NCBI GenBank assembly: GCA_977020255.1
Contig: CDROCS010002266.1
Coordinates: 1 to 64,000 of the forward strand
Length of the DNA: 64,000 nt
Source of the DNA: Obrimoposthia wandeli
Lineage: Eukaryota
Direction: 5' to 3'
Each line of letters opens with the position of its first letter. The stretch's first letter is position 1. Positions 1 to 61,821 of the stretch are shown in pieces. The position numbers and the translations under genes are program-made. Below the pieces are notes generated by a model that saw nothing but the letters and a program-made list of their open reading frames with translations, was not told the DNA's origin and did not search any database.

Positions 1-508
1 AAATTGCGAAGCAAATTGTCATACTATAAGACACAATTCAATTAGAGATACTTAAGATAGTGTAATACCGTATCCGATTCACAAATACGAAGGAAATCAA
101 TCAATTATTCTAACACCTTCATTAATTTCAGTCAGACAGACATACCAGAATACCCTTCGAGGCGAGTCTGGTAGAAGACAGCGAACCGAGTAACGATACA
201 GAATCAACAGAATCGAAGATAACATAATAGAGCGATTCGGAAGAACCATGGAGATTGAATTCGCTAAAGAAGGCAGAAAAAGACAAAACATAGAATTCGT
301 GAAACAGAATATACAAGAAAGACGAATTAAATCTGCAGAAGGAGCCGAGTCAGGAAGACCTCAACAAAGGAACAGACATCAGAGACAAAAATGAATACCT
401 CCATAGATACGAGAGGAAAGAAACTTCAGCAAAACTAACTAACATCGACGAACAGATAGAGATTAGAAAGACTAAAACTTGAAGAGTCAGAATTAATGCC
501 ACAAATAG

Positions 509-998
509 GTAGAGATCATTCCAGGTAAGTTATACCTCCGGAAATGTGGAGATGCAACAGATGAAAAAACTGTTGGAACAAGGGATAACATACGTGATCA
601 ACGTTACGGCTGAATCACAAATCTATAATATATCAGACAGTCAGAGCTATGACATTAAGAGTAAAAGACTCAATGGACGCTAATCTTCTCCAGATAGTTT
701 GAGAAACAAACGAAATACTTCACAGAGAACTCGGAACCAAGGAAAAGTGTTGGTACATTGTCAGAAAGGAATTTCTCGATCAGCAACTCTAGTATTAGCA
801 TACCTAATAAAGACTAGACGAATGCAGGTACTGAAAGCGCTAAAATACCTACAGGGAGAAGAAGTATTGCAAGCCAATCTTAATTTTTTTGCGGATAGAT
901 TCAACCCAAATTACCAACTTCTGTTGCAAGAACAAAGACGGATGGACGACATTCCTGAGGATCCAAAGGAAAAGATTTCCTCAAAGCATTATCACTGA
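509..998 (+). pseudogene. Dual-specificity protein phosphatase (DUSP), frameshifted
   Basis: The N-terminal part reads VEIIPGKLYL/GNVE...EQGITYVINVTAE (509-620, one frameshift). ORF 699-998 carries the catalytic loop KVLVHCQKGISRSATLVLAYLI (HCxxGxSRS) and a downstream NPNY resembling the conserved PN motif. Confidence 0.88.
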
Positions 999-1016
999 CT
1001 GGGGTTATTCTTGGCC

Positions 1017-1370
1017 GAGGTCGATAAAATTACACAGATAATGCCAAAAGTATTTTTATGTCATCCAGGAGAAAATATAGATACTGCTGGATTAGTTCAC
1101 AGTATCAACCAGTAATACTTATTTAACAAATCATTCGTCTAGTAGCCTCATTCTGATCGAGATAGAAGCGATGCACCAAACAACATCTGACGAAATTGAG
1201 CTCAAACCATCAAGCTGAAGTCTAGAAGAAACGGCGTTCTGATATATCAGAAAAGGTACGATGTTGGCGCCTACCATAGGTGTATCTTGTTGATGCCATA
1301 CACGCCAGAAGAAGCGATGGTCTACATCAAACAGAATAGACCGAATGAATTTCAACTGTTCCTGACTTAA
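1017..1370 (+). pseudogene. Possible second, degenerate DSP-like domain
   Basis: ITQIMPKVFL resembles the DSP N-terminal strand, GVLIY sits where KVLVHC would be, and TPEEAMVYIKQNRP resembles the DSP C-terminal helix. There is no catalytic Cys and there are several stops. Confidence 0.4.
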
Positions 1371-2139
1371 AAGCTAGCCGAAACAGCAACGAAACAAATG
1401 AAGCTGCAACAGCAGTACCCAGCACCGCTTTAAATTTACTTTCGCCAACTGACTTCCAGTTCTTATGCAGAACTAGCTAACCCATACGAAACTCAGTTCC
1501 GTTTCCTTGTCAGTACCATACACCGGCACTAATGATGCTATTAGTATTGTTAGGACTAATTGATGTGTGGATCATCGAAAATGTCTTCGATCTATGAGAA
1601 CCGACAGTAAAAGATTTCGGTTTGTAAAGATAGAAAGACCAAATGGACCAACAAAACAAAGTACTTGTGTATCTAGACGAAAGGATCGAGGATAACATAG
1701 TGAATGAAACTGATATTTTACCCACAAAACAGAATACTAACCAATTCCGAATGGATTACGAAGCTGACCGACAACCGCACACTTGACCGAATAATATCAA
1801 CAACATTCTGCCGGATGCAAGCGCGAAATAGAAATTGTAAAGGAAATACAAAAAGATGCTGATACAAAAGGACCAACGTATATATCTCGATGGCGATGTC
1901 ATCAAAACACGTGAGTATGGAAGTAAGAGAGTGATAATTGAAACAATGGAAGGACATAAAACATGCTTAAGTCCCGCCAAAAATGGATTCGGAAGTTGAC
2001 GATACAAGGTAAGAAGCCGGTACAGTTGATTATCAGGAAGAGATGGAATCGAGGAGATGTCAAACAACGACAGACAACAAAACGATACAATCAGAAACAG
2101 ATATCTCTCAAACGATTGATAATTAAAACCCTTTGTAAA

Positions 2140-2664
2140 AAGGTCGGTCAAGGCCCTGTGCCGCGTTGCACAAGGATTGATTTATGGAGTAGTAATTGGA
2201 TTGGTACTGCAAGCCATGCCAACCAGTAAAGCCGAATTGATGACACTATCCGAATATAATTTACATTTGAGAAATCTAGACAACACCCTAGAAATAATCA
2301 AGACATCCACAGTAGAGCCGTGATGATCATGTGTGTAAAAGGATGTCCAGGACGAATGTGTATAGTCCCAGCGACCGAAATGATAACATTAATGGCTGTG
2401 GAAGTTAGTGTTGTCACATGTGAAGACTACATATTTGGACAAACTAAAATAGTGCTTCTCAGTGACATGTCCAACCAAAGTGCACACAAATTTAAAATAT
2501 TAACCATCAAGAGTAAAGGAATACCAGCAGTACGTTACGGTATTCTAGAATTGGTCAATCCAATACTCGCACTGATCTATTGATTTATAATATTAATATT
2601 ACTCATCTTGTTTTGTTGTTCAAAGATAGAGTCGAGATCAAAAAAGAAACGTCATGATCTATAA
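2140..2664 (+). pseudogene. Small type I membrane glycoprotein-like ORF, disrupted
   Basis: Hydrophobic leader GLIYGVVIGLVLQAM, sequons NFT and NQS, Cys cluster CVKGCPGRMC, and C-terminal ILALIY*FIILILLILFCC followed by the basic tail SKIESRSKKKRHDL*. Contains a frameshift and an in-frame stop. Confidence 0.45.
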
Positions 2665-3879
2665 GACGAACAGGTCAAATGAACTAACAAAAATTCAACA
2701 CAATAATACCAAGACCACCATTTTTAGACGAACCAGCACCAGAGTACCAGCCAACGATATATGAACACATCGAGAAAAGACCGTACTATATGAGTAATTT
2801 GACTTGTTTCATTGAAGTTCCTGAGTTTAGGAATCGAACGATCATAGGAATCATGATCGCACAAATCACCACTACCAAGGCTGGTGTATGAGATTATGAT
2901 CAGTAAATGGAGACAAGACGTAATACGGGCAATATAAATAGAACTTCCCATACTAAACACAAACCACGTAGTAGACCTCCATCTACAGACGTCAGCAACT
3001 GACAATATCGATCAGAAATTGTATGTCATCCGACAGGTCAGAATAAAAATCGACCAAAATACACCCGTTTACAATTTAATATTATTGCATCATGAAAGAG
3101 TGTTATACCTACGGATAACTATATCAAAGAGGAAGCGGATTATCCAAAGTATCCGAACAAAGTCATTAATATTGCCTAGAGATGAGCGCATCTGGAAAAT
3201 TGTCGACAGGATTATGATCACAGGTAGACGACGTAAAGCCGTATGGAATTCCGTTAGAGATATTTTTCAGATTGCTAGAAACTGACAGCGTGACAGTAAA
3301 TGTGTCCCAGCCCAGATGGCGTAATCAGATTCGAAATCCAAAGCCAAATGTTAGTACCACATTTTAACACAGAATGTCTGTGTAATCGAATTGCCAGTAA
3401 TTCTACAGAGAACCTCGACCATAATCATGATAATAACAGGTGAAATATTCTACATAACTCTAAGATACCAGAACCGTCGATTTCGTAGATACGGTATAAG
3501 TATCAAACCCAGGAAAATCATTCCCAGAAGGCCAATCTAGTCAAAAGAAGGCAAAAGTAAACGAAAGTAAACGACATTCCAAGAAACCGACAGTGATCAA
3601 AACAAAGACAAAGTGAAAGAAAAGAGTCCAATTCCAGAAACCAAAGTCCAATTATTAAGAGGACAAGAGTGAGGGAACGATCACTAGATCCCAAACATCA
3701 TTTTCAATCCAAAATAATAATACCTGTTCCACCAGAAACAAAACACCCAAATCCCCGAATTTTTAGAAAATCGGACATAATACATGGAAACCGATCAAAA
3801 CCCATGGAAATATCATTCGAACCAACCAACAACAAAATGAAGTATGATTATAAATCATCAGACAGCGGAATAACAGGCG

Positions 3880-4083
3880 GTCAATGCCCTAATTGGAATG
3901 GCCGTAGTATCAACAACAGTGGTTTTATTGACAATCGTGTGCGTAAAAGGCGTCAAGTATGCCCAGGAATACGACGAAAATGCGAAGGATTGCGATGCTG
4001 TGACACACCATCATGGAGGAAGTGGAATTGCGACCCTTACCTCCGCCTCCCATCAAGATATGATGAGTCAGAGTTGTAGATAA
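3880..4083 (+). CDS. Small ORF with one predicted transmembrane segment
   Basis: ALIGMAVVSTTVVLLTIVCVKGVK is a hydrophobic stretch followed by a polar tail. No family recognised. Confidence 0.3.
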   Translation, partial: VNALIGMAVVSTTVVLLTIVCVKGVKYAQEYDENAKDCDAVTHHHGGSGIATLTSASHQDMMSQSCR

Positions 4084-4182
4084 ATTAGTGTGTGAAATAT
4101 GTAGAAATATCTAGAAGCGATTGTACAAATAGTAGAAGTATATAAAACTCATGTAGAAATTAATCATCATCATGTATTTAGA

Positions 4183-4484
4183 ATGGCGAAGAATGCCCAA
4201 TATGTTTGGAAGATCTAACCGAGACGAAGAACAAGACCCGAAACCTGCAACCATTTACACCACGAGGAATGTTTATCGACATGGATCAGAACTTATGGAC
4301 AGTTCGGACACCTCCAACATACCCTCGTTGCCCTGTATGCAGAAGACAATTCGCAAGATTCGTCATGTTAGAACCCAACCAAGAGGATGTATATGTACAG
4401 GTGGTATTCTGTTGGAAGAATTTCGGAGAGTGTTGGTGTTATTACTGTTTGTCAGATCGACAAAATCAGACCACTTTTGTGTAA
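4183..4484 (+). pseudogene. RING-H2 E3 ligase-like gene 1 (two frameshifts)
   Basis: EECPICLEDL (4188-4215), then in another frame CNHLHHEECLSTWIR, then PTYPRCPVCRRQF and CWKNFGECWCYYC. A TATA-like GTATATAAAA lies at about 4138. Confidence 0.8.
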
Positions 4485-4544
4485 ACATCACACAACCACC
4501 AGTCCTCAATCGAGCCCAAATTCAGCATCAACCCTCCCACAGTA

Positions 4545-4849
4545 ATGTCTGGAGAATGTTCCATCTGCTACGAGGCATCGTGGACTTCTACACCAAGCCC
4601 AACAACTGCGACCACCTCTTCCACGTCGAATGCCTCGAGACGTGGATCCCCATTGCCAACAGCAACAACCCCCTCGACTTCCCAACCTGCCCGATGTGCA
4701 GAGCGACCTTCTCAGTACACTACGTGTACAACCAAGACAGCCTCCAAGCAGTGGTACCCATCGTGCACTGCTGGAAAACCATCTGCGATTGCTGGTGCTC
4801 GTTCTGCGTGGAGGAGCGAAGCACAGGCCAGCCCAATCCCCAACAATAA
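4545..4849 (+). pseudogene. RING-H2 E3 ligase-like gene 2 (one frameshift)
   Basis: MSGECSICYE joins, with one base missing, to GIVDFYTKPNNCDHLFHVECLETW...PTCPMCR, giving a complete C3H2C3 pattern. It is followed by CWKTICDCWCSFC. Confidence 0.88.
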
Positions 4850-5183
4850 TCGAAGGTAACTTTCTGACTTGAACGTGACATCATGAACTACCCTGTGTAT
4901 CGCATACCGCGATAAACTAGCTACCATAATTGTAATCATAATTATATAATCTTGTGAACTGTAAATTGACCATTACCATTTTTATGTATGATGTTTAACT
5001 GAAATTGTAATTATTATACTGAATTTCTAAAAAAGACAATTTTTATGCTTAGTGTGAATGCGTAAACATGCCTAAAATTGAAACAAAACTCGGTAGGATT
5101 AGATAACTAAGGATTCATTTTGAAATAAAATTTAAATTAACGATGAGAACGGTGAACCCCAAATTGAAAGGAGTCATTTTCTC

Positions 5184-5715
5184 ATGCAGATGAAGTGCTC
5201 CGTATGCATGGAGAAGATTTGGGCGGTATCAGCATCCCCTGTCGGCTGCCGTCACAAATTTCACGAGGAGTGCCTCTATTTGTGGACCAAGGTTCGACCC
5301 CGGACAAATCACCTGTCCACTGTGCCGGACACCCTTCAAATGGACACTCCAGAGCCGCGGAAGACACAAAGGCACCCGATCGCCCGCAAGCTGCATTGGT
5401 GGCATACATTGCCAATGCTACGTGTGTCTCGCACGCCGGCGCGACACACAACTGGGCGTCCGCGAGAGATGGCGGTCTAGTCGAGACTGCCACTCGTGGT
5501 TCCAGGCCAGACGGCACTGGATCGAAAGCCATGCCATGAACGGGCAGGAATTCGACCTATTCATCGACAGCCCACATTTAACCCGGAGCCAACAACTCCA
5601 CTTGTACAACGGGGACAGTCCGTCCTTTCCCGACCTTCCCCTGGAGCAGGTTCTACGCTACCTGACCAGTCGGAACCAGCCGACAATAACAATTGACCTG
5701 ACATACGAAAACTGA
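5184..5715 (+). pseudogene. RING-H2 E3 ligase-like gene 3 with C-terminal SIM-like motif (one frameshift)
   Basis: MKCSVCMEK...GCRHKFHEECLYLW; after a frameshift near 5305 an open frame reads ITCPLCRTPF...CIGGIHCQCYVC...QPTITIDLTYEN*. Confidence 0.82.
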
Positions 5716-6554
5716 CACTTTCCTCCCTTCTTTCCTTCCTAATCAATAATTTTGTGTGTAAATTTTTAGTTGTGTATAAATAATAATGTATGGTTTGAGA
5801 CTTGCTCCAAATTATATATTATGTTTCCCACTGGAAAACCGGGATTTTGGAAAATTTTTTTTTGGGCATGTTTGTTGAATGATTGATTTTGTAGGGATGA
5901 ACCTAAAATCAACAGCCAGAGGCTTATTTAAGTAAAATCGATACGTTCCGGGGACGTAACTTTTTTGGAACCCCCGAGGTATGTTAAGGTTGAGAATTAA
6001 GAAAATTAAATATTTTAGTCGATTAAATACTAAAATAAAAATCCTTGAAAGCAAGGTCGAAAATTAAATTAAAATATTAATTTAAGTTTTAGAAGTAAAA
6101 TTAGTGAAATTTAGGGTAAAATTAGGAGGACCACGAAGGTCGTGTACAATATGAGATGTATATAAGTTAAATTAATTAACCCAAAAGTCGCAAAATATTA
6201 GAGTTAATTAAAAAGAAAACGGTTAATTAAAACAGTCAATCAAACTGTTTAGAATTTTGATTGACACTGTTCAAGGAATTTCCAAGGAGTTGATTGACAA
6301 GAACGTCAATTAGGGTAAGTTTTTTGTGTAACAGGCTGAATTAAGTCATTTTCAGCTGTCGACTGACTGACAGAATTTTTCTCTATAAAAAAGAGATCGA
6401 CAAGACAGAAATAACACACACACGACAGGATCAACAGAAGAAAAAAGCAAGAGGCTCTGGAAATCCATACTCTCGACCGGATCGGTAAGTAGCGATTGGG
6501 AATTCGATAAAATTAAACTTATTTAGATCAATTATTGCTGATAAGACATTGATC

Positions 6555-6910
6555 AAAAAGTAACCAAGTATCCGAAAGTATCCAAAAAAGTAACCAAGTA
6601 TCCGAAAGTATCCAAAAAAGTAACCAAGTATCCGAAAGTATCCAAAAAGTAACCAAGTATCGAAAGTATCCAAAAAGTAACCAAGTATCCGAAAGTATCC
6701 AAAAAATAACCATATCCGAAAAGTATCCAAAAATAACCAAGTATCCGAAAGTATCCAAAAAGTATCCGAAAAGTATCCAAAGTAAAGTATCCAAAAAGTA
6801 ACCAAGTATCCGAAAGTATCCAAAAAGTAACCAAGTATCCGAAAGTATCCAAAAAGTAACCAAGTATCCGAAAGTATCCAAAAAGTAACCAAGTATCCGA
6901 CAGTATCCAA
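6555..6910. repeat. ~29-bp tandem repeat (AAGTAACCAAGTATCCGAAAGTATCCAAA), about 12 copies, inside LTR copy 1
   Basis: Directly visible tandem array with internal rearrangements. Confidence 0.95.
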
Positions 6911-7077
6911 AGGACTAAGGTTGAGCGAGAAGAGTTCAGTATCCAACATATTAAGAGAAGACGATATCCGAAACCGAAAAGAAGACGATCTCACGAGCGC
7001 TCCATACGGAAACTGCGTGTCAGACATCTCACTCGTACCGAAGCAGCGAGTAACTGGTAAGATCACCGACTAGAGTA

Positions 7078-7510
7078 TTCATTGCCCCTAGTTGGCAATT
7101 AGGTTACCTTCATTACCCCTAGTTGGTAATTCTACATTTAAAATAATACATAAATTCATTGCCCCTAGCTGGTAATTAGGATCGTTGTCTCTTTAACACA
7201 ATCATTGCCCTAGTTGGTAATTAGGGATCGGACATTTATTCATTGTCCCCAGCGACAATTAGGAAACCTACCAGACGTTTTTTCCCGTAAGATTCATTGT
7301 CCCTAGCTGACAATTAGGTTCATTCATTGCCCCTAGTTGGCAATTCGGATAAATATTCATTGTCCCTAGTAGACAATTCGGTAAGACTCATTGTCCCTAG
7401 CTGACAATTCGGTTCGTTCATTGTCCGTAGTTGACAATTAGGAGTAAGTTTTCATTGTCATCTTGACAATTAGTTTTTTAGGAGATCCATTGTCACAGTA
7501 GACAATTCGG
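7078..7510 (+). repeat. Array of 12 palindromic hairpin motifs, TTC-ATTGYC-loop-GRCAAT-TMGG, with variable spacers
   Basis: Left arms start at 7081, 7112, 7158, 7204, 7242, 7296, 7326, 7359, 7390, 7420, 7454 and 7489. The 6-bp stem can pair in all 12. Confidence 0.92.
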
Positions 7511-7993
7511 GTCAAGCACACCCAGATAGAGTTAAGGAACAAAGAAACATTTAGCTAGAGATAAGAAGTAGGAGCGAAGAAATTTAAGAGAGTTGCGTTA
7601 TAGATTAACCAACCTGAGTAAGAAGACTAAACCTAAGAAACTTAATCACCTGAACGTAAAATCGATACGTGGTTCATCCCCACTTCTTGTAGAGACTTAC
7701 AGAAGTCCTTTAGGAATTTTATCATACTTTTTAGAAATACGTACATAAACGTATTGTGGTGTTAGTTACGTGAATTTTGAATAAACAATTTCCTACATTA
7801 GAACAAGTTGTTTTTACACCCTTCAGACTAAGAGACATCAAATCAAATACCTTCAGATAGTACAAGAGATTAGGCAACCATAACACTAAGTAGGCCACGA
7901 CCAACTTTAAGACCTGCTTCTAATCGAACTCACGTTGGGGCCCTCCGCACAGTCAAGAGGCTCTATACCAAGTTTCGTATAGAAACCCCAACA

Positions 7994-8545
7994 CTACTAT
8001 CTTTCCGACATTATTGACAATATACAAGATTCCTTCTTTTATCGAGTATTTTTTCGTCATTTCATCGTTTAGGTCTCCTTTCACCAACAATTCTTTGATT
8101 AGACTCAGTTCTTCATCTTCTTTCTGTTCTTTGATGATCTCTTTGTCTATTTTACCCGTCTTTAGCAAAATCTTCAGTAGATTTGCTTCTCCTTTTTGGT
8201 CATTGGTTTCATCTTCTTCTGGAATTATGTTTCCTTTCTCATCTACATTTGTCAATCTCGACAAACAATCTGCGTTGCCGTTCGACTTTCCGGTTCTATA
8301 ACGGATTTCTAGATCGAATTCGGCCAATTTTAGAAACCATCTGTTTAATCTACTCATCTCATCTCTATGTTTATATAAGAACTGTAGTGGTTTGTGATCT
8401 GTATACAGGAATACTTTTTGTCCTAGCAAGTAGTGTCTGTACTGTCTACATGAATACACTATGGCTAGACATTCCTTTTCGATAACAGAGTATCCTCTTT
8501 CGGCTCTGTTTAATCCTCTACTCGCATACGCGATGACGTGTTCTC
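7994..8545 (-). mobile_element. Ty3/Gypsy pol fragment (RT-associated RNase H and linker)
   Basis: EHVIAYASRGLNRAERGYSVIEKECLAIV...LYTDHKPL...RWFLKLAEFDLEIRYRTGKSNGNADCLSRL. The frame is cut at GKIVV by the LTR-like element. Confidence 0.93.
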
Positions 8546-8571
8546 TTCCTTCGTCATCCTCAACATGATGA

Positions 8572-15412: not shown

Positions 15413-16159
15413 GTTTAAGAGAAAAAATATAACAATTATTAGGGTTTAAGGACAGAATAGCATATAATCAGACCAATATAAAACCTACCTCTTTCATTAA
15501 AGCAGTCATAGATGGATGTTTTTTAAATAACAGACATAATTTGACATTACTTATACATCAATGTTGATTGATTGAAATATTCTACATTACAGTTGTTTAA
15601 CTTTAAACATTTTGTTGTAAAAACTAAGATATTAAGACTTTTGAGTTAGATAATCAGGTTAGGGTGTAAAAGAAAACATTGGAAATTTTGTAAGAATGAA
15701 TCTAATAATCAATAAATCGAAATATATCTATCCATATCTTCTAACATCTCTATCATGAATCTTCTTTCAAAAACTTTCATCCCTAACTTTCAGAGAAATT
15801 AACAAATACCATAAATTCATATATTTCCATACATATTGATTATTGAAAAACTGAAATTATCAATATTATCAACATCTAATCTCACTATCATCAACCATCA
15901 TACAATTTTTTATTTACATATAACAAATATTTAAAAGTTTTTAAGGCTTTTAAGGCTTTTAAGTTTTTTGAAAATTTTGAAAATTTAAAGAAAAATAATT
16001 TTTCAAATTTTGACTTTGAAAATTTGAATTTTCGCGGATAAATATTGATGCATTTAAACAAAAATGACGCATTTTAACAAAATAATGGAATGACCTTGGA
16101 ATGACGTTAGAATGAGCGTGATGTACTCGGGAGAATTGGTTGCCGGGGAATGGTTAGTG

Positions 16160-16365
16160 TTAGGGATATGGCTTAGGGTTAGGCTTAGGGTTAAGCTTGG
16201 TTAGATTTAGGGTTAGGAATATGGCTTAGGGTTAGGCTTAGGGTTAAGCTTAGGGTTAGATTTAGGGTTAGGGATATGGCTTAGGGTTAGGCTTAGGGTT
16301 AAGCTTAGGGTTAGATTTAGGGTTAGGGATATGGCTTAGGGTTAGGCTTAGGGTTAGGCTTAGGC
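16160..16365 (+). repeat. Telomere-variant array with a 55-bp higher-order period
   Basis: Unit TTAGGG TTAGGG ATATGGC TTAGGG TTAGGC TTAGGG TTAAGC TTAGGG TTAGAT; GGGATATGGC recurs at 16271 and 16326. Confidence 0.95.
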
Positions 16366-16419
16366 TTAAAGTTTTTGAATTTTTATTGATTTACGAATCA
16401 CCACCAATATAGACGTAGG

Positions 16420-17044: not shown

Positions 17045-18390
17045 TTGGTGTTGATAAATCGCAATAAATTCGCAAATAACACGTCTGCAAAGTGTCCAGT
17101 AACAAGAAAACAAATGAAATTTTATCGGTGTGGTGAAGAAGGTCATGGTAGTCGAGAATGCACAGTAGCTGAATGTCGAAAGTGCTATATTTGCGATGAA
17201 GTTGATAATTTGTCACTGGAATGCCCAAAGAAAATTAACATCGATGACAAGTTTGAAATAAAACTGAAATGTGGTGTAATTTTCGCTAGTGACACCTCAG
17301 AGAATTTAGTGCATCTTCCAGTAGTTATTGTAGAAGTAGACGGTCGTTTGTGTAAAGCATTGGTGGACACTGGATGTTCACGAACTGTTGTTTCGTTGGA
17401 AATATTTTCCAACAAGAAGGAAGGTGGAGGTCAACTGAGAGTAACAAAATGAACAGCGATAGTATAGTGTGTGGCTTAGAGATTTGATGTTGAAAGTCGA
17501 AAGTTTAAGTGTGAAATTGGACTTTTTGAAGTCACCGATTTTGAGTGGATTTGATGTGCTCCTGGGCATGGATGTGATTGTCAAGTGTGGTGGTATAGAA
17601 GTTGGTGTCGAACAAAACGTCAAATTTGGGATGAGTGATATGGAGTGTGTTGTAACAGAAGAGAAGGACATGTCGATTGTAGATAAAGACTTTACTATTG
17701 ATTTTCGAGATGAAAGATGGGTTGCGAAGCGGAATTGGAAAGATAGCGTCCAAGATCCACAGTTGAGAAATATGGTGTCACAATGCCGTATACAGGATGA
17801 GGGAGTAGTTGGAAAGTTCGAAGCAGAAGTTGAGGAATGGATTGCAGCTGGTTGGTTAAAACTGTATGGTGGTTAGTACTATGGCCTTATTCCTTTGATG
17901 GCCGTGGTGCAGCATAATAAAGGTGGGAAAGTTCGACCTGTGCTGGACTTCCGTCCACTCAATGATTTTGTATCCAGTCGTACGATCCAGGGTGAGGTGT
18001 GTGGAGGAAAACTGTGGTCGTAGAGGAGAATGGGTGTAAAGCTTAGCATAGTTGACTTGAGAAAGGCTTATATACAAAGGAGTCCAATATTGCCTGACAC
18101 GGTTAGGGTTTGGTTTGAATATAGCACCCAAAATCATGTCTGCGGTGGTGAATAAGTTGTTGTCGATGAACGAAAATGTTGCACGAGGTACAGACTCCTA
18201 TGTTGACGATGTCATTCTGAACGAGGCGGTGGTGACAAGTAATAGTGTGCGAATTTTATTGCAAGATTTAAACTGGAGTCAAAGGAAGCGGAACCGTTGT
18301 CTGGAGATCGGATACTTGGGTTAAGAGTATTCAATGAATCTGGTCACATGCATTGGAAGCGGGATACTGTATTGATGAAAAATGACAGCA
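17045..18390 (+). mobile_element. Gypsy-like gag-protease-RT remnant
   Basis: Zinc knuckles YRCGEEGHGSREC and CYICDEVDNLSLECP, protease ALVDTGCSRTVV, and RT motifs KVRPVLDFRPLND, LRKAYIQ, IAPKIM and YVDDVIL. Multiple frameshifts and stops. Confidence 0.9.
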
Positions 18391-18639: not shown

Positions 18640-21130
18640 CATCTGGATATCGGTGATGTCCGTAGGCAACTAACCGGTTTTTCTCTAACTCATTTTATCT
18701 TATCGTCATTGCTACTCAATGCGATCTTACTCATATTTACGGTATAGAGCTGATGATTAATTGAACTAATGCGTTGTTGTTGCACTCGTTCACTAAACCA
18801 CTTCTCATTTGCAGCTAAATAATTCGCATGGCGTAGTGCAGTCTGCTTAAGGCTAATTCCCTTTGCTCTCATCTGGGACTTTCCGTCTATAGTTTCTAAG
18901 CTATATGATTTGGGGCGTAAAAATACCCATTGCTTATATCTAGAGACACCCTTACTCTCATCATCAAACTTGCCTATCGCAGTATTGGCTAAAGTAAATA
19001 AAGGATGGTTTATAGGAAATTTCGATGTGTCTAATAACCCATCCTAAATCATTGCTGGCAACAGTGTAGCTTGCACATCTACATTATCACGCTTTAGAAA
19101 AGAGCTATCAGTGTCACCAGCAATTATTCGAATGTCGCAATTAAACTGACATCTATATTTCTCTAATTGAACATATTGAAGCTCATACATCCTTAACTTA
19201 CTTAAATCCAGAACTGCCTGGCCAATATAACTAGGACGATCTAAAACGACAGTTTGCATATTTAGTAAAACAGTTATTCGTTAGTCGATTTCCATCGTAC
19301 TACGGAATTGGGCCTTACTACAATATGTAACAAGCTTTTGTGGTGTATTACAATTACGGATGTAAATTCTCTTCATTAAATTCTCTATTTTCTACTTACC
19401 AAACAGAGAAATAACCTTTAATTTATAATATTCACGCTCGAAATCATTTGCAGCACTTGCTCTTTTCGCGGAATTATCCTCAATATACTTTGAAAAAACA
19501 TTAGTTTGTGCAAACTGTATTTCTCTATGTACATAATCTACTTTCGCACCAAGTCTTATGTACATTTGAAGCAATCTGGAATGTACAATATAATGCTTTT
19601 TAGGGTATTGAGTCAGAAGTAATTTTGGTTGTTTACTACCAATAGAGCATTCCTTTCGCGGAGCTAAGGGGAGATCGTCTAGTTTATCGTGCAGCTCTTT
19701 AGGAATGGATAAGTCCACCTCCATCAAATGAGCAAATCTACTACAACTTAAATCCTTAAATGAGAGCTCGGAAATTATACCCCTAACTCTAACTGATCAG
19801 TTACCCACTTAAAATCCCCACAAGGTAAAAATATTGACATGGCCCATCCATAAAGATTATTTACATCGATGTATAATAGCTCACAACCATTCACTGTATC
19901 AACCTTGTGCTCGTTGACAAATATCATTCCTCCTCTGATGCCTTCACGAAATAGGGAGTACATCTCTCGATCTTGAACGAATTCCACTTTGATCTCATGA
20001 GGTGATGAAGTAGAAAGAAGCAAAGACTTGAAAGCGCTCGCGAAAGATAATCCTGGGAAGAAAAATAAATTAAAGATTTTTAAAAGAATTGTTACTAAAT
20101 ATTACAGAAAATCGATTACTGAAAATGATTACTAAAATTTACTAAAAAAATTTACCAGGAATCGAGAAGAAGTTGAGCGGTCATAGCCTGAAATATCTCA
20201 GTTGATTGGGGTATTATTGATATATCCCAATGCGAAAACTGAGTTATCGCATGCTTAAGGATATGATTCAAATCGTATCCTCTCAAGTTATGAAAAATAA
20301 CAGGAAAAGAACGATTTATTCTACGTGATAAATTACACTTTGAATGTGATACTCCAAGGTATTTCCCAGTCATATGATCGTGATCCCGGACCTTGTTAAC
20401 GCAGCGCTTATTACACAGGTAACAAGTAGTAGCTGCATGGAAACTAGCTACTTGCTCCGGTGTTAGCGCGCACATTACTGCAACAGCATGATCTCGATAC
20501 CATGGAAGAACAACATCCCTAGCCAACTCCTCCAATTTTTAAGGAAAGACACCACACAAGATTCTCCTGTGAAAAAAGAGTAGTCCTGTGTAAATTCATT
20601 TGAAGCAGATGTGATTGGAGAAATCAGCATACCGGTCGCAATGGGCAGATGCATCTGATGATGAATACCATGCGGCGGCAAAACTGTCTCGAAGTCGGCG
20701 TAAACGGAAAACAGAGGTGATACCGTTTTTCTACAATCAGTAAAAGCGATATATTTATTCGAAGGCATCTGATAGAGAGTCGTATGCTCCTTGTTCATTG
20801 TGCATGTGCATGAGCCTCGTGCTTGGCATAACTAACTGGATTCATAAAGCCATGAAGACACTTATGGCACCAAGTACACCTAATTCGAGTAGCAGGTCCC
20901 TTATTCCGAAAATTTAGTAATTTGCTTAGTTTAGGAACCGCCACATTATGAAAACCAGAATTATTTTCTAAAAGAAGAAGATTTACTGGTGAGCTGCTGG
21001 GATTTGTGGTTCGGTATATTACATCAATGAATGGATTTTTGAAAATTTCTTCATTGGGAGGAATACAACCGAAATTATTTTAAAAAAATACGTACATTGA
21101 GAGTTTAGGATTCTCCCTCTCAAATCGAGG
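18640..21130 (-). pseudogene. Protein-primed family B DNA polymerase (Polinton pPolB), decayed, with an internal deletion and one intron
   Basis: In order on the minus strand: FERENPKLS, WCHKCLHGF, VYADFET, KVRDHDHMTGKYLG, FHNLRGYD, PGLSF, GIRGG, LYIDVNNLYGWAMS, ENLMKR, LDRPSYIGQAVLDLSK, GDTDSSF, AKGIS and KIALSSNDDK. GT-AG intron at 20053-20155. Confidence 0.93.
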
Positions 21131-22466: not shown

Positions 22467-25400
22467 AATGAGAGAGCGGAGAGGGTTACGAAGTTGGATA
22501 TAATATTGACTTGGGATGAATGGACGGAAGCACGGAATACGGAAGAGGATTCAGACAAGAGAAAGAGGTATAGGGATATCGTACGAAGATTCAGTGACCA
22601 GAAGAACAGAGAGTTAGAGCAGGCGGTGGAAAACAAAGACCAATTCAAGATAAAGGAGAAAAAGAGTGAAATAACAAAAGCAGAAAAGGAATTTGAGGTT
22701 AGAACCACAAAAGAGTCAAGAGAAAATAAAAATCAAGAATCAAGAGAAAATAAGTCAGGCCAAAATGTGTGGAAGGTACTAAAAAAGATTAGTATCCCGT
22801 ATTTCTTTGATTGAAAGTTGGAGGGCAATATTTGGTACTGTGATCGCTCAGACCAATGCGCCAAAGCAAGAAAAGATGCTGCAGCTGATGGACTATGTGA
22901 GGCGGGAACCTTACAGGTTAATTCAAAACCTTGGGTTCAAGGATGCAAGTTACGATGAAGCTTTAAGATTGCTAGAAGAAAGGTACGGAGGAAGGGAAAG
23001 AAATTATAGAGGTTTGATGGACGAAGTTGAAAAGTTTAGAGTGATAAGATGGAGAGAAGACCAAGATCTGGAAGCCTTATACAATTAATAAACAAGATAG
23101 TAATCAGAGCAAGAGAAGAAGACAACAAGGGTGATCTTGGAAATGGGATTATGTTCAACAAGCTGTTGAGGAAGTTGCCAATTTTAGGAGTGATGGATTG
23201 GACGAAGTGGATCCAACAAAACGGGGAGAAAGAGAATGTATGTACGTTAAAGATATGGGCCCAGCAAGAAAGTGAGAATCCAAGAAGAGCCAATGAGGTT
23301 AATGGAAGTCGTGAGAATCAAAGAAGGCGAGCCAGTGACGTTGAAAAACCCAGGAGATGGAACAATGACACACGTCATTACACTCCACATTATTTGTGAA
23401 TAGTAAAGGAAATGGAAAACGGTTATAAACCAGTCCACAAAAGTCGAAAGAAAGGCATAATGTGCAAAATGTAAAGCCAACCACTATACTGATCAATGTG
23501 AGCAGATTAAACAGTTGACAGTGGCAGCGAGGCAGAAGTGGGTCAAGAGAGAGAAAATATGCAAGAATTGCTTACGCAGTAATCACACGGTGGAGAAGTG
23601 TAGATTTAATCAGTTATGTCGGACATATGGATGCCACGAAAAGAATCACTAGTTCTGCATGATAAAGGGGGGCAAAGAATAGTAGGTCAAACAATGGTAA
23701 TAAAAGACCGACAACAGAAGGCACGCGCATTCAAAGCGTTAAGGACAGTGCCAGTGATATTAAGAAGAAAAGGCATTGAAACATGTGCGAACGCACTTTT
23801 AGATGACGCTAGTACCCTATCATATATAAGTAAGGAATTAGCTTGCACTTTGAGAGCACGAGGTACAAAAATAGAACTACCTGTGGGAGTTATTGGTGGT
23901 GAGGTGTGTAAGTTAGACTGCGAAGAGATAGAAATTAGCAGCAGATATGGGAAAATTAAACGAGTAGTAAAGATGTTGACGCTAGAGGAAATTGCTGATA
24001 GTTTAGAAGTGATAAACTGGTCTGAAGAATCATCTTACTGGCAACATTTAGCAGGTATTGAATTTTCGAATTCAGAGTCCCAGAAGAAGGTGGATATACT
24101 GATTGGAGCTGATAACCTCGACTTATACCGATGTATTAAAGAAGTAGTAGGTCCACATGATGCACCAATTGCGAGATTAACACCACTAGGGTGGACATGT
24201 GTTGGACGAGTAAAAAGACAAACGCAGTCAATCAATCGACATGTGCTATACACTATTCAGTAAGGAAGAAGTTGATATAGATTTAAGACGATTCTGGGAA
24301 GTTGAATCTGTTCCTGACGGAAATAGGAAGATAAATCACGATGAGTCTCAATTGCTACACTTATCAAGAGCAGAAGTGGTACATGAGAACAACTGCTATG
24401 AAGTCAAGTTGCCATGGAATGAGAAAAAAATCCGAAATGCCAATGAATAGCTCCATGGTCAAAAGAAGGTTAAATAGTCTCATCCGAAAGTTGGATAAGG
24501 ATCGTTTATTAAAAGACGACTATTCAACGGTAATAGAAAATTATATGACTAAAGGGTACATAAAAAGTTAACGTTAGATGAAGAGAAAGAAACTAAGTGG
24601 TTACTACTTCACTTCCCAGTGATAAAACGGGGGAAAATACAACAAAAGTTAGATTAGTCTTTGACGCAGCGGGAAAAAGTAATAATATGAGTCTAAATGA
24701 GGCAATCCATTGTGAACCCAAGTTCCAAGGAGACCTTATAGCAATTCTTCTGCGATTCCGAAGGAATGCAATAGCATTAGTATGTGACATTTCAGAGATG
24801 TACTTACAGATCAAGATATGTAAGGAAGACCGGCCATGGCTAAGGTTCTTATGGAGAAATAGAGAGAACCAGAGGAAAATGTATGAATTCCAGAGAGTAG
24901 TCTTTGGAATAAACGCCTCACCGTTCTTGGCTCAACTGGTAACCAGAGTAAACGCAGAAAATTTTAAAGTGAAGTATCCAAGAGCCAGTGAGACAATTTT
25001 GAAATCAACTTACATGGACGATAGTCTAGATTCAGTGTCTTCAGTAACCGAAGCAGATAAGCTAAAAGATAAGTTGGTGGAAATATGGGGGAATGCAGGG
25101 ATGATTGCAAGAAAGGGGATTAGCAATAGCCCAGAGGTTAATAAAAAATACCCCTTTCAGAAAGAGCAAATGTCTTACATATAGATGACAAAGAGTGTAA
25201 CTTAACAGTAAAGACATTAGGCGTACACTGGGATGCTAAATCCGACAAAATTTTCATAGTGACAAAATTTGAAGAAGTCGACGACATAACCAAACGATCT
25301 TTCTTAAGTCTTTTATCAAAAGTGTTTGATCCATTAGGTTTTGTTAGCCCGATAATCATCAGAGCCAAAATTATTATTCCGGAAGTCTGTCTTACAGGGT

Positions 25401-27560
25401 CGGATTGGGATCAAAAAGTAAATCAAGAATTAACTAAGAGAATAGTACAATAAATAGCGGATTGTAAGCGACTGAAAGATATCAAAATTCCGAGATGGAT
25501 GATAACGAGTGAAAAACTGCAAGAAATTCACGTATTCGTGGATGCCTCGACTACTGCGTATGGTGCCGTTGCATACATGCGTAATGAAGACACAGGCAGA
25601 GTGACGATGCGATTGATGGCAGTTAAGAGTATAGTTGCCCCAGTGAGAATAAAAAGTGTACCCATATTAGAGCTGATGGCTGCAGTGATTGGAGTGAAGT
25701 TAGCGCAAACGATATGGAAGGCCTTAAATTTAACGGAGGTAAAAACAACATTTTGGTCGGACAGCAAGAACGTATTATGGTGGATACGCCAGCCGGGAAG
25801 AGACTACAATCCCTTGTAGCCAACCGAGTGGGGATGATCCAAGAGAATACCGATATAAAGCTCTGGAGGTATGTGTCCACGAAGCTAAATCCAGCAGATA
25901 TACTATCGCGGGGAGTCGATGTACGGCTATTGATTGATGAGACAATTTGGTGGGAAGGACCGGAGTACCTAAAGGAACAGAAAGAAAATTGGCCAGTTAA
26001 TTTAGACGTAGAAGAAATACAGTCAGATAAAGAGTGAAAAAGAGACGGTACAAGGAGGTAAAGATGTTCATACAGGAAGGAAACTGTTTCCAGATAGAGA
26101 CTTATTCCGACTTGACGAGGTTGAAGAGAGTCTTAGTTTGGATACTACGATTTGCACGAAATATAAAGTTACCTCAAAATCGCAGACTTGTAGGCGAGCT
26201 GAAGATGGATGAGGTGGAAGAAGGGATGCAGTGGTTGATAAAGCATGAACAGATTCAGTACTTCTGCAAGTAATACCAAAGGTTGATAAAGAGGAAAGAG
26301 ATTGAGAGAACAAGCTCCTTGCTCAGGTTGAAGACGTGGGTGGATGAAAAAGGGATAATCAGAGCCAATACCCGAATTATTAATGCGGAGTTTTTAGATA
26401 ATGACACAAAATATCCCATAGTGTTATCGAAAAAAAGAGTTGACTGACTAGATTAATCATAAAGGATACACACAAGAAGTTACGACATTACGCCGGGGTA
26501 AAGCATATACTGAATGTAAGCCAAAATAAATATTGGATTCCTAAAGTACGAAGAGTAATCAAAGAAATAGAGCAAGAATGCTTAGACGGCAATAAAAGTA
26601 AAGCCACAGGGATGGTCGAAGAGATGGTCCCATTGCCGGGATTCAGATTCGAACAACCGTTAAGGGCCTTTGCAAACGTCGGAGTGGACTTTGCAGGACC
26701 ATTCATCACAAAACAAAGACGGGGAGAGTGAGGACTAAGAGATACCTTTGCCTTTTTACATGCCTGCAAGAGCGGGACATTCAATTAAAGGTGGCTTATG
26801 GTTTGGATTTCGATGGGTTTATTAGGACATTAAAAAGATTTATAGGAAGAAGAGAAAGACCACAAATGAAAATATTGGATAATGGCACAAATATTGTGGG
26901 GGTGGTGAATGAAGTGAGCGAATTGGTACGGGATGGTTATCGGATTCAAAAAGAGTTAGTAAAGGAGGAGATACGTTGGGTCTTCAACCCACCACATGTA
27001 CCACATTTTGGAGGGGTCTTTGAGATCATGATAAAATGTGCAAAAAGGGCTATATACCGGATACTAAGAGGAGCCGAAGTGGCAGACGAAGAATTACAAT
27101 CAGTGTTCATCGAAGCTGAAAGCCTTGTAAATTTTAGGCCCATTGGAGTTAAGAGCATGGATGCGAAAGAGAATGAGGCGCTTACACCCAACCATTTTTT
27201 AATAAATCAGGCGTATGCTGAGACGAAGTTTGGGAGCGATGAAATAAAGTCGAAGCACAGATGGAAGTTTGTCCAAAGGTTAACCAGTATGCTATGGAAG
27301 CGATGGATGGAGGAGATTGTACCCATGTGGGCAACGAGACAGAAGTGGCATGACGCACGCACACCGTTACTGATCGATGACATCGTGTGGATAATAGAGA
27401 AGCAAGAGGAGAGAGGTAAATGGAAATTAGGAAGAGTGGGAAAATTAGAGACAGGAGAGGATGCAAGGTGAGAGTAGCAAAGATTAGGGTGGGAAGTAAG
27501 CTTATAGTTAGAGTGCTACATAGCGTGTGTAGATTAGATTGGGTATTTTGAGCTGGTTTA
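21795..27560 (+). mobile_element. Bel/Pao LTR retrotransposon gag-pol, decayed
   Basis: Gag (EKMLQLMDYV...LLEERYG), Cys/His knuckles (CAKCKANHYTDQC, CKNCLRSNHTVEKC), protease ALLDDASTLSYIS, RT KVRLVFDAAGK, ILLRFRR and YMDDSL, Pao RNase H HVFVDASTTAYGAVAY, and integrase GVDFAGPF, DNGTN, PHFGGVFE and LTPNHFL. Confidence 0.95.
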
Positions 27561-29088: not shown

Positions 29089-30617
29089 ATGAACTTCAAA
29101 TTCAGCGTAGACGCATTACTTAGCAACAGCTACCATATCGAAAATAGGCAGGACAAACGTAAGTAAAATTAAGTTTCATCATAATGGTAAATTTCGAAGG
29201 ATTATTAATTAATAATTTTCTGGACTTCATCTTGATTTATATAATTTTTTTTACGACAGTAAAACAATAATTATGCAGCAATTAGCTATCACTTATATTG
29301 TGTTAAAATAAATGTATCATGTACATTTCAGTTATTGTAACCGTAATCTTAATATTTAAAAAGAGCATATTTTATGAAATGCACGGGAAAATTCCTTAAA
29401 GTTAAATAAAGAAATCGTGTTTAACAATAATTTGTTTTATATTTGATAAAAATAAATATATAATTTTTATTTCATAAGTTTATTATTGGGTTTATTTAAA
29501 ACATATTTTTGTCATATATATAGAAAATGAAAAAATATGATTGTATAAATATATTGTATAAAGGCAATGCAAATTTATTTTTAACATATTTTAAAAATTT
29601 TAAATATTTTACAATCTCATCAAAATAGAACTCTAAAAATATGTAAAATTATAGTTAAATTTAATATCATGTTATCTTTAAATTAATTTTATTTTGGATG
29701 AAATAATTTCAAAAGCTCTAACCAAAAGGCCCAGTAAAAATTGAAATAATATGAACCCTAATTATTGAGTAAATAGCATATAATTTAATATAAACAAAAC
29801 AAAAACTTACATTATTTATATGTACACTTAATATACAAATTTAAAAAATAGAACGATAACAATATACAAAAATATATTTTCCTTTCATTTATAATTTACC
29901 ACAATATACTCTTTATAAGTAAAATTTATTTTTATTTTGTAATCGGAATGTAAAACTATTTCTAATATTTTATTTTCCTAGCAGGGAAAATTATTATGCT
30001 GCGCTGTGTAATTTACCTAAATAAGCAGCTACAATAATCCCAAAACACTTACAGTTACAACAAACTGAAAAAAATGAAATTTATTATGAATTGGTATGTT
30101 AATTTAATTGATTTTTTGAATTCGATTCTTTTTCTAACATCTGTGAGTTGCTGTTAATTGGGAATGTCGCGCAGTGAGCATATCTAGCGAAGATGAGGAA
30201 CATGCACTGACGTCGTCATCGGTAACAACAGCGCTTCGAGTCCCACCACAGACGCCAACCTGTTTGACAGATGGCCTAGGCAGCTACTGCTCAACGAAGA
30301 AGAAGCAGCGGAACCTCTTCACCAAGAGCCAGACCTCGATTCTAAGACAGTACTTCAATAAGAAGAACTACATTTCTGCCGCAGAGCGAGAGGCTCTCTC
30401 CATCACGACCAATCTCAGTCCGGAACAGATCAAGATCTGGTTCCAGAACAACCGCTACAAGATGAAGAACAGCTTTAGTTTCCGGGCGCAACGACACGGA
30501 CTTTTAGTGGCCGGGGCAGCCGGCCTGCGGTACCATAACCATAACCATCACCATCACCACCACCAGCAGCAGCATCAACCTATGCAGCATCAGGTGGGTA
30601 CGGGCCTCACTCTTTAG
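29089..30617 (+). CDS. NK2-class homeobox transcription factor, join(29089..29158, 30175..30617); the 3' end may splice at 30593
   Basis: Exon 1 reads MNFKFSVDALLSN (TN/eh1-like) and ends C|GTAAGT. The acceptor GCAG|TG at 30174 restores the phase. The homeodomain at 30297-30476, KKKQRNLF...IKIWFQNNRYKMK, has the NK2-diagnostic Tyr54. His/Gln-rich tail. Confidence 0.88.
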
Positions 30618-44952: not shown

Positions 44953-45033
44953 CCCTAACCCTAACCCCGCCATAGCCCTAACCCTAACCATAACCCTAAC
45001 CCTAACCCTAAGCCATACCTCTAACCCTAGCCC
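44953..45033 (-). repeat. Telomere-variant (CCCTAA)n array
   Basis: CCCTAA units interrupted by GCCATA, the same interruption seen in the reverse complement of 16160-16365. Directly followed by the subterminal block. Confidence 0.93.
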
Positions 45034-45163
45034 TCATTCCAAGGTCATTCCAATATTTTGTTTAAATCTGTCATTTTTGTTTAAATGCATCAATATTTGT
45101 GCGCGCTAAATTCAAATTTTCAAGGTCAAAATTTCAAAAATTATTTTTGCCAGATTTTCAAAA

Positions 45164-45688
45164 TTATTGTTTAGCAGCATCATGAAATGAATCAACTAGA
45201 AAGTTCTTTTTTGGGGGAAATGCCTGTTTGGCCACGAAATCTACAACTGTTTGATCTCTAGGATTTTTAAATAAAACTAAGTAATGTACATTAAGATTTC
45301 TTGTTCTATGGTGACCTCCTTGGTGAAAAAGGTTTTGAGTGATAAATATAAATGTTACTTCACGATGTCTTGCAATCATTGTAAATAAATTATTAAAGTC
45401 CGATTCCTTGTTAGCTTCATGATACAAATCATCAATTATTATTACATCTTCTTTTTTCAATCTTCCACACCAATTTGCATCAAATCCTTCAATAAATTTT
45501 ATTCCCTTCAACTTGTAAACTTCTGTTTTGGTTAATCCGCTTTCCCCTCCTCCACCATGATACCAATAAATATTTTTGAAACTAGATTTGAAAAGAGATT
45601 CATTTTGCAACAATTTACATACGAAATGTGTCTTTCCACTTCTACTGGGACTAACTATTTGAAATACAGCATTATTATTTAGCTCCAT
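45164..45688 (-). pseudogene. Polinton FtsK/A32-like DNA packaging ATPase, 3' truncated
   Basis: Walker A VSPSRSGKT (degenerate), Walker B IIIDDL, and LFTMIARHR, ITQNLF and LVLFKNPRD. The frame stops at the junction with the subterminal block. Confidence 0.9.
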
Positions 45689-46026
45689 TACATATACTCT
45701 TTCATTTTAATATTGTTTATATTATCATTGAAGTTTCCTTATTGAAATGTACAATGTCAGAGCTATTGTAGATGAAATACAAAAATTAATTAATGAATAT
45801 TTGGCTATAATTTTATTTATTTGTGTTCGATTTCTAAATTCTCGAATAACGTGTGATCTAACCAATATTTCAATGTTATCTCTTGTTATATCATTATTTT
45901 TTAATTCTGATAAAATTTGTTTACCCTTAATTTTTCCAGAAAATATTTCGACGACAATAACGATCCACTTCATTGTCTGTATTTATAGTATTATTAATTT
46001 GAAATAATAGGTTTAAAGGGGTTTGT

Positions 46027-61200: not shown

Positions 61201-61821
61201 CCCACTTCTTCACAAATGAGTAGTGCCTCCAATACCTACAGTCCTGCCTCTCCAACCCCTTTCTCCAACTCGACAGGATATTCTCCTGCTTCTGCAAAAT
61301 TGAGAGGAGTCTCCAATACACATAGTCCTGCATCTCCGAGCTATCCTCCCACCTCACCCAACTTCAATTCATCTTTGCAGAGATACAGCCTCATTTCCAA
61401 TGCTTACAGGTCTTCTTGCCTTGGCTACTCGCTCACTACTACACGGTTGAGTGGTCCCTCCAATACGTACAGTCCTGCTTCTCCAACCCCTTGTCCCAAC
61501 TCGACAGGATATTTCCCCGGTTTTTCACAATTAAATGGTGCTTCCAATACTTACAGTCCCGCTTCTCCGACATATTCTCCCACTTCTCCACAAATGAATG
61601 GAGCTTCCAATACTTATAGTCCCGCTTCTCCGACATATTCTCCACAAATGGATGGAGCCTCAAATACCTACAGTCCCGCTTCTCCGACATATTCTCCCAC
61701 TTCTCCACAAATGGATGGAGCCTCCAATACCTACAGTCCCGCTTCTCCGACATATTCTCCGACTTCTCCACAAATGAGCAGTACCTATAGTTCAGCATAT
61801 CCTGCAAAATCTACGGACTGA
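52239..61821 (+). CDS. POLR2A: RNA polymerase II largest subunit, join(52239..52319, 55541..55945, 56050..61821), 2085 aa
   Basis: Exon 1 MLKFDFLKVPVKEIKKVQFGVVSAEEL|GT. Exon 2 KQMSV...GLMDPRQG...CPGHFGHIEL. Exon 3 has GKRVD, the catalytic YNADFDGDEMNLH, TPSEFFFHAMGGREGL, TQMTLNTFH and a C-terminal YSPxSP-type CTD. Both introns are GT-AG and phase 0. Confidence 0.97.
53609..53687 (+). rRNA. 18S rRNA fragment (pseudogenic) in RPB1 intron 1
   Basis: TGGTGCATGGCCGTTCTTGGTTGGTGGAGTGATTTGTCTGGTCAATTCCGATAACGAACGAG...CCTGCTAAAT matches the conserved SSU segment before V7, with a few substitutions. Confidence 0.88.
53810..54350 (+). mobile_element. Tc1-like transposase remnant in RPB1 intron 1
   Basis: RENRLKFAEDHL, a WG...G...L-like segment, YVKIL, HDNA and LNPTEKL, spread over shifted frames. 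Confidence 0.6.
60383..60613 (+). repeat. 21-bp coding tandem repeat (11 heptads, mostly YSPVSPG) in the RPB1 CTD
   Basis: GGATATTCACCGGTATCGCCA repeats almost identically. Confidence 0.95.

Follow-up and report, generated by a model that had tools for sequence, protein, structure and literature searches.

Positions 1 to 7993 of a 64,000-nucleotide stretch of contig CDROCS010002266.1 from Obrimoposthia wandeli (hereafter the window, meaning that whole stretch) are the 3′ third of a Ty3/gypsy element of about 23.5 kb, the rest of which is truncated by the contig start. This is the 3′ end of a young, high-copy, envelope-bearing, Burro-like element, and most of what resembles an array of small accessory genes beside its long terminal repeat (LTR) is the end of a single gag-env-pol polyprotein. 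The cargo proteins are kept by selection and probably act on host signalling, which we take to be the best explanation of the whole.

Nine long copies were fetched from the assembly, 8 with two LTRs and 1 ending at its contig. The two-LTR copies measure 22,775 to 23,801 bp and are bounded by paired LTRs of about 2 kb with TG...CA ends, matching the window LTR at 5982-7993; 6 of the 8 have a 4-bp target duplication. The LTR pairs of those 6 differ by 1 to 10 substitutions per ~2 kb, so the copies are young, and the pairs in the 2 copies lacking the duplication differ by 18 and 39. The primer site lies 8 bases past the 5′ LTR and is complementary to the 3′ end of the genome's tRNA-Met(CAT) genes, making the primer an elongator-type tRNA-Met. 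Genes for this tRNA also occur as tandem arrays at C2252:485-11858 (period ~284 bp) and C2837:586194-598329, with 53 exact matches overall. Pfam profiles follow each other in one frame in the order CCHC, PF24664 env, protease, BIR, RING, second protease, reverse transcriptase (RT), RNase H, integrase and two DSPc, which includes the protease-RT-RNase H-integrase order of Ty3/gypsy. The env is a class III fusion-protein gene, matched by PF24664 on two pieces at E = 2e-77 and 1e-9, between the CCHC knuckle and the first protease.

An earlier note made from the window sequence alone had proposed that the array is the cargo of a giant retroelement, and had held its link to the LTR to be unproven for want of a polypurine tract before 5982. 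The proposal stands: the array is inside the paired LTRs in all 8 two-LTR copies, with gag, env, pol and a matching 5′ LTR upstream, while the element of the window copy can be followed at least to base 1, where the contig starts. The polypurine tract is indeed absent, and none precedes the 3′ LTR in any of the 9 long copies, which have the same 25 non-purine bases instead; 40 bases at this place are identical in 28 of 30 copies and near-identical in a subfamily B copy. Because the non-purine stretch is common to all 9, including full-length copies with matching LTRs and target duplications, the want of a polypurine tract characterizes the family and does not count against linkage.

A query with positions 4500-6100 against the assembly returned 5,037 candidates, of which 40 were scored and all proved full-length at 95-100% identity, and in 30 of 30 loci from it the array runs into the same LTR start; in the window the last stop is 266 bp before 5982, close to the distance first noted. 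Since these loci were selected by the query, exact 20-mer counts were added. The phosphatase active site has 4,366 exact matches in the assembly, the subfamily A array-LTR junction 2,260 and the LTR end 21,227, against 0 for the reversed controls in each case, and these counts may take in uncollapsed haplotypes and may miss diverged copies. By hand count, the phosphatase 20-mer lies 5.2-5.4 kb upstream on the same strand in 26 of the 45 junction matches listed on C1-C89. At least 4,366 copies come to about 100 Mb, or 7% of the assembly, if all are full length, and a Burro-like family of this size would swamp the phosphatase and E3 gene counts in a genome annotation.

Six-frame translation of 1-6100 in the window yields short pieces in shifting frames, which had been read as a run of separate genes. 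That reading fails, as the counterpart of 1-4063 in other copies is a single open frame that runs on from RT and integrase, and the phosphatases and membrane proteins are domains of a polyprotein. The whole frame spans about 16.4 kb and 5,350-5,470 residues depending on the start, and one locus has 3,332 open codons, from before the BIR to the final stop. RT and phosphatase share one open frame in 2/9 copies, the phosphatase is open to the frame end in 3/6, and each step from integrase to TIG-like repeats to phosphatase is open in 4/9, with breaks at differing places. Eighteen of the 19 junctions between marker motifs are each crossed by an open frame in at least 4 of 5-9 copies; the 19th, across env, is open as a whole in 0/5, yet none of its 9 steps is open in fewer than 3 of 5-9 copies. 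These overlapping natural open frames make up a single open reading frame (ORF) of ~5,000 residues with env in frame between gag and pol. At the frame start (L043/L053), about 120 codons before the first ATG are open and conserved in both subfamilies, a hint of splicing upstream of the start or of non-AUG initiation. In L096, an alignment of 1,911 residues was rejected as an open frame for its 3 stops.

The broken state of the window copy has a likely technical origin. Alignment of 6 kb with one natural copy shows 149 indels, of which 94 fall within the first 1.5 kb, as compared with 3-12 each in 8 other copies; the rise towards the contig end fits low-coverage consensus error, and the indels are likely assembly errors. 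Contigs built from short reads (two runs, one sample) span each of the 30 bins and differ from the window at 31 indel positions; as they derive from the family at large, they do not prove the indels of this copy to be errors. Indel-rich contig ends can thus disguise a polyprotein as a gene array. The inverted RNase H piece at the far side of the LTR, 98% identical to internal pol of other copies (Pfam RT_RNaseH E = 1e-28), implies that both ends of the window copy have been rearranged or misassembled. The A-rich sense strand remarked on earlier is borne out at 38.6% A versus 22.8% T over 1-4080, and the pol of another copy has 40.3% A.

One might suppose instead that the tail is made from its own spliced or internally started RNA, and that its common frame with pol is a relic. 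No copy has the whole frame open (0/9 long copies), 4/7 break at one common place just before the env transmembrane helix, which may be real, and in the sections consulted of a review on Burro (PMC6431247) accessory ORFs can be separate or fused. An untranslated junction, however, would not stay open; the integrase-to-phosphatase and RT-to-phosphatase counts given above, with their scattered breaks, argue that it is translated, and we hold a separate RNA for the tail to be highly improbable. The features of the element in the window are as follows.

1-4063 (+): final ~1,400 codons, in the post-integrase tail, of the gag-env-pol polyprotein frame; stop codon at 4061-4063.
1-116 (+): end of the third of three beta-rich repeats of ~115 residues, possibly IPT/TIG-like.
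160-367 (+): acidic low-complexity linker, from its sequence.
499-930 (+): MKP-like dual-specificity phosphatase (DSP) domain, general-acid Asp and HCQKGISR intact.
1014-1372 (+): second DSP domain, a predicted pseudophosphatase, with YQKKGTML and neither catalytic Cys nor Arg.
1437-1574 (+): predicted internal signal peptide (by eye), ectodomain of ~25 residues and transmembrane helix 1 (hydropathy 2.27).
1576-2144 (+): basic domain of ~185 residues, predicted cytosolic, of no known family.
2144-2748 (+): predicted type I membrane protein with signal, all-beta ectodomain of ~120 residues, helix 2 and tail.
2751-4063 (+): predicted last type I membrane protein with signal, ectodomain and stalk of ~360 residues, helix 3 and short Cys/Pro tail.
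4183-4484 (+): RING-H2 gene 1, ~99 aa, zf-RING_2 E = 5e-10, AG acceptor-like site 1 base before the ATG.
4545-4849 (+): RING-H2 gene 2, ~101 aa, zf-RING_2 E = 6e-9, acceptor-like site 2 bases before the ATG.
5184-5715 (+): RING-H2 gene 3, ~176-178 aa, zf-RING_2 E = 2.5e-7, acceptor-like site directly before the second ATG.
5957-5981 (+): conserved non-purine stretch (T-run, short purine end) at the polypurine-tract position.
5982-7993 (+): 3′ LTR (TGTT...AACA, ~2 kb), matching both LTRs of the 8 two-LTR copies.
6384, 6484, 6546-6928 and 7780: LTR signals, respectively TATAAA, donor-like GGTAAGT, tandem repeats and AATAAA.
7993-8561 (-): RNase H fragment of this element in inverted orientation, abutting the LTR end where a target duplication would be expected.

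The first DSP domain has the general-acid Asp and HCX5R of an active MKP-type DUSP, and is predicted to be active. Pfam DSPc scores E = 3.9e-16 on the window piece 684-995 and E = 3e-41 in open copies; the HCQKGISR P-loop, at 756-779, is identical in 12/12 long copies. The best match in the Protein Data Bank (PDB) is DUSP10/MKP5 at E = 1e-24, with a D-C-R triad that aligns, and the other top-scoring solved relatives are DUSP4, DUSP1, DUSP2 and DUSP16. A Pfam scan finds no N-terminal rhodanese/KIM domain. A dead second domain had also been suspected, and a second DSP domain without the catalytic Cys is what is found, scoring DSPc E = 1.2e-6 when the equivalent region of another copy is scanned, with its YQKKGTML motif identical in 12/12 long copies. 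Comparison of the DUSP region with proteins of 1,832-5,831 residues gave 1,347 candidates, none at E ≤ 1e-5, shorter or split forms being outside that search.

The rest of the post-integrase tail, which is ~1,800 residues overall, is less readily named. The three repeats of ~115 residues ahead of the phosphatase align with one another (hhalign E 1e-5 to 4e-3) and with the related polyprotein P0078. Their top Atlas matches are to PF01833, weak at 0.88-0.90, which makes the IPT/TIG likeness a lead only, and a single-sequence fold of the 900-residue stretch from these repeats to the DUSP reached a predicted local distance difference test (pLDDT) score of only 34. The last 932 residues, following the phosphatases, contain four strongly hydrophobic segments, along with two weaker, signal-like segments recognized by eye, and fit three signal-ectodomain-helix modules. 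The earlier note had listed two membrane proteins here; the hydrophobic segments stand, and the two proteins give way to these three modules. Module 2144-2748 has hydropathies of 2.13 and 3.49, its tail has PAPEY and TIYEHI motifs in 12/12 copies, and its ectodomain gives a low-confidence all-beta single-sequence model (pLDDT 43) with weak Ig/FN3 Foldseek matches at E ≥ 0.12. Module 2751-4063 has a hydropathy of 2.68 and a signal recognized by eye. A search of 1.84 billion representatives returned 0 homologues of the 932 residues. A viral-glycoprotein identity for them was considered, and was not used as all the Atlas matches score below 0.9.

The three RING-H2 genes were read correctly as genes, and Pfam finds their domains on window 4172-4846 and 5184-5477. 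They are paralogous, with 28-38% identity and a common C-terminal cysteine cluster. In the window all three frames are interrupted, but among 30 copies RING1 is open in 25, RING2 in 22 and RING3 in 26, with all three open in 17. A YAG is placed 0-2 bases before all three starts in both subfamilies, including RING3 with dS ~1, on a background of 15 among 176 ATGs in the region, and the LTR has a donor-like GGTAAGT 100 bases past its TATAAA. The RINGs are thus likely to be made from spliced RNAs, in which the LTR leader would be joined to the AG before each start codon. Such cis-splicing is the simplest reading of these signals. Spliced-leader trans-splicing occurs in flatworms and would be an alternative. 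A 229-codon frame overlapping RING1-2 was set aside as a shadow frame with a ratio of nonsynonymous to synonymous substitution (dN/dS) of 1.18.

That frame serves as the control for the selection analysis, in which dN/dS was computed by pairwise Nei-Gojobori between natural copies of subfamilies A and B, the pairs not being independent. The sister subfamily was reached via a solo LTR at window 37704-40591 (+), 2.9 kb long with an AATT target duplication and internal 111-bp and 45-bp tandem arrays; of 11 sister LTR matches examined, one is a 5′ LTR and four others have internal sequence upstream. One subfamily B copy on C127 (L086-L088) has a large internal deletion joining RT to the last tail part, with gag, the RINGs and the 3′ LTR start kept. 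The ratio is 0.06 for protease-RT-RNase H, 0.02-0.09 for integrase, 0.10 for the three TIG-like repeats, 0.07-0.10 for the phosphatase and 0.04-0.07 for the dead DSP domain, which is conserved as tightly as RT. It is 0.25-0.45 for acidic-linker residues 1960-2100 and 0.15-0.35 for the tail, within which residues 2430-2840 (the basic-domain region) have 0.15-0.23 and the last membrane module 0.26-0.35. RING1 has 0.28-0.42, RING2 0.17-0.24 and RING3 0.14-0.21, the last from three pairs with dS near saturation and with the L096 pair (dS 2.96) left out as saturated. With cargo at 0.04-0.42 against 1.18 for the overlapping frame, the substitution pattern indicates that phosphatases, membrane tail and RINGs are translated in these frames and kept by purifying selection.

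These ratios also bear on whether the array consists of host genes or processed pseudogenes picked up by chance as passengers, or is a large DNA virus endogenised beside an unrelated LTR. Hosts and large DNA viruses alike commonly have DUSP and RING domains, the window copy has a decayed look, and one giant-virus contig has a RING with 36% identity over 54 residues. The array nonetheless lies within paired LTRs in 8/8, shares its frame with integrase and shows a dN/dS well under 1. Nor is there a viral core gene between the LTRs (DNA polymerase, capsid or packaging ATPase), only retroelement domains, and no viral contig matched the DUSP pair. The large DNA virus that had been entertained is excluded, this whole explanation is refuted, and we give it next to no credence.

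Relatives were sought among the best 120 of 1,250 matches to RT-integrase. Eleven metagenome polyproteins (P0073, P0074, P0076, P0078, P0083, P0085, P0088, P0089, P0090, P0099 and P0112) are 53-58% identical over RT-integrase, the other matches being mostly 30-50%, and they form a clade with this element at support 98/96, with 9 conventional elements as outgroups. They are giant gag-env-pol polyproteins; their cargo varies, and their proteases number up to three or more. Among the 10 scanned, 9 have the PF24664 env, extra proteases are present and 2 have ankyrin repeats; none has DSPc, BIR or RING, nor does the 11th by its precomputed domain list. P0078 shares the TIG-like repeat, and also has ankyrin. 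The post-integrase tails of the relatives likewise end in hydrophobic-helix signal-ectodomain-transmembrane modules, and profile comparison of the tail ectodomains detected no homology to those of this element.

To consider what the cargo does, genomic RNA would give one polyprotein, to be cut into its parts by the two aspartic proteases together with the signal peptidase of the host. Cleavage would release a cytosolic MKP-like phosphatase, the dead DSP copy would serve as a substrate trap or scaffold, and up to three released type I membrane proteins may be attachment or decoy proteins beside env. Together with the upstream BIR-RING (IAP-like) module, the cargo would damp JNK/p38 stress and death signalling, and the set would clear restriction factors from the host cell in which replication of the element takes place. 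The selection described above backs such a role for the cargo as signalling and ubiquitin effectors, and this remains the reading we favor. Several points weigh against it. Besides the want of one wholly unbroken frame and the shared break before the env helix, the phosphatase is without a MAPK-docking domain, and its substrate is guessed from its resemblance to MKP5. The dN/dS filter keeps stretches of at least 50% local identity and so leans towards conservation. The acceptor pattern at the RING starts was a post hoc observation, and the corresponding place in the subfamily B LTR shows no clear counterpart of the donor-like site at 6484. Finally, the ubiquitin-like (Pfam E = 0.0073) and BCL2-like (0.052) segments are weak, their order before env being as in Burro.

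The cargo could instead serve the element's own cycle, with the phosphatase acting on Gag or capsid at maturation, the RINGs in budding or turnover, and the membrane modules as structural envelope parts. The poxvirus VH1 phosphatase, which acts at maturation, offers an analogy, and here the phosphatase, as part of the polyprotein, would be equimolar with Gag and Pol and is without the docking domain. Membrane modules at the ends of close relatives as well suggest that this part of the tail has a structural role throughout the clade. Against this, the absence of DSPc, BIR and RING from the 11 relatives means that the core cycle does not need them, and the IAP-like BIR-RING module points at host cell death, so that we find a purely internal role rather improbable.

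A more ambitious version of the host-directed role, which we offer as doubtful, is an infectious, complex retrovirus-like flatworm agent, actively spreading and converged on the accessory arsenal of lentiviruses and poxviruses. Its proteases would free a MAPK phosphatase partnered by a pseudophosphatase, its TIG repeats would act as Rel-like decoys, and it would have additional surface glycoproteins as well as three E3 ligases expressed through alternative splicing or spliced-leader trans-splicing. If such an agent exists, more than 4,000 phosphatase copies could reset host stress and regeneration signalling when silencing lapses.

The remainder of the window holds other features. An RNA polymerase II largest subunit (RPB1) gene at 55529-61821 (+) is nearly intronless, with 51-56% GC in a region of ~30% GC and degenerate C-terminal repeats. 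Its identity is 59% to neodermatan flatworms as against 55-57% to other animals. In a tree without a triclad it groups with neodermatan flatworms apart from Macrostomum (support 100) on a long branch, which makes a free-living flatworm the likely host; the gene may be a fast-evolving paralogue or a retrocopy. A homeodomain exon at 30147-30617 (+) is NK-like by eye (Pfam E = 5e-18). Also recognized by eye are a broken BEL/Pao-type pol (protease, RT, RNase H, integrase) at 23610-27471 (+), and Polinton/adintovirus-like fragments with DNA polymerase B and a packaging-ATPase-like piece at 19392-20538 (-) and 45164-45706 (-), similar pieces of which flank several other element copies as well. Degenerate TTAGGG-like arrays at 16134-16385 and 44969-45034 are at the ends of an inverted-repeat element, and another LTR element at 17045-17876 (+) has a Gag knuckle and protease fragments, with an LTR end resembling that of the Burro-like family.

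Among known systems, the dual-specificity MKPs (DUSP10/MKP5, DUSP1, DUSP4, DUSP16) align with the element's catalytic domain over ~138 residues, including the general-acid Asp, HCX5R and an NPNLNF-GQL stretch. The element's DUSP differs from these, and from STYX-type pseudophosphatases, in having no rhodanese/KIM, in being paired with a dead copy and in being embedded in a retroelement polyprotein. Smed_errantivirus_1-6, a set of six S. mediterranea elements given in PMC13524379, has the gag-env-pol order and a gB-type env whose rows match motif by motif by eye, and spans 14.5-18 kb, like the 16.4-kb frame here. The main text of that paper makes no mention of phosphatase, accessory or polyprotein, and its table gives no primer tRNA for the Smed elements, as against the elongator-type tRNA-Met here; the likeness is by eye only. 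The sections consulted of PMC13238120 and PMC9289625 have nothing on cargo, and those of PMC8532177 report that BURRO1 RNA rises on smedwi-2 knock-down.

The nearest description is that of planarian Burro, as the earlier note had supposed, and the layout of the element matches it. In the sections of the review consulted (PMC6431247), Burro/GYPSM1 of Schmidtea mediterranea is over 30 kb and in thousands of copies, with a 4,873-residue ORF holding AIR1, Smc, MATH, BIR, ankyrin, BCL2-like, SUMO-like and dUTPase-like domains and an in-frame env; content such as MATH/ankyrin varies among Burro elements. Burro1/GYPSM1 and a Burro-like element of Dugesia tigrina share with ours the thousands of copies, the giant ~5,000-residue ORF, the BIR, the accessory ORFs, and an env in frame between gag and pol that matches mononegavirus fusion proteins (PMC6431247). 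The BIR here (PF00653, E = 2e-10) stands with a second BIR-like segment (E = 0.015) in a BIR-BIR-like-RING module between the two proteases. The BCL2-like segment has no Bcl-2 match in a PDB sequence search, the ~200-residue spacer between protease and RT has no dUTPase match in Pfam or PDB (the review used HHpred), and the 8 frames scanned have no MATH or ankyrin Pfam match. Relative to Burro as reviewed, this element is shorter (22.8-23.8 kb versus >30 kb) with a longer frame (~5,350-5,470 residues versus 4,873 and 5,140), and has one CCHC knuckle instead of two or three and two proteases around the BIR-BIR-like-RING module. The phosphatase, pseudophosphatase, TIG-like repeats, three membrane modules and three RING-H2 genes are absent from those sections (PMC6431247). 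The literature searched gave no phosphatase in an LTR element, the original Burro description (Grohme 2018, supplements) and Repbase, which may list such ORFs, being outside its scope. The review urges tests of Burro effects on apoptosis and ubiquitination (PMC6431247), and the small separable domains here, namely the phosphatase, its dead copy and three RINGs of ~100-180 residues, make that question testable. The element is filed as Burro-like and not as one of Burro1-4, being likened by description with the named Burro RTs outside the tree. Its architecture is known, and its cargo appears to be new.

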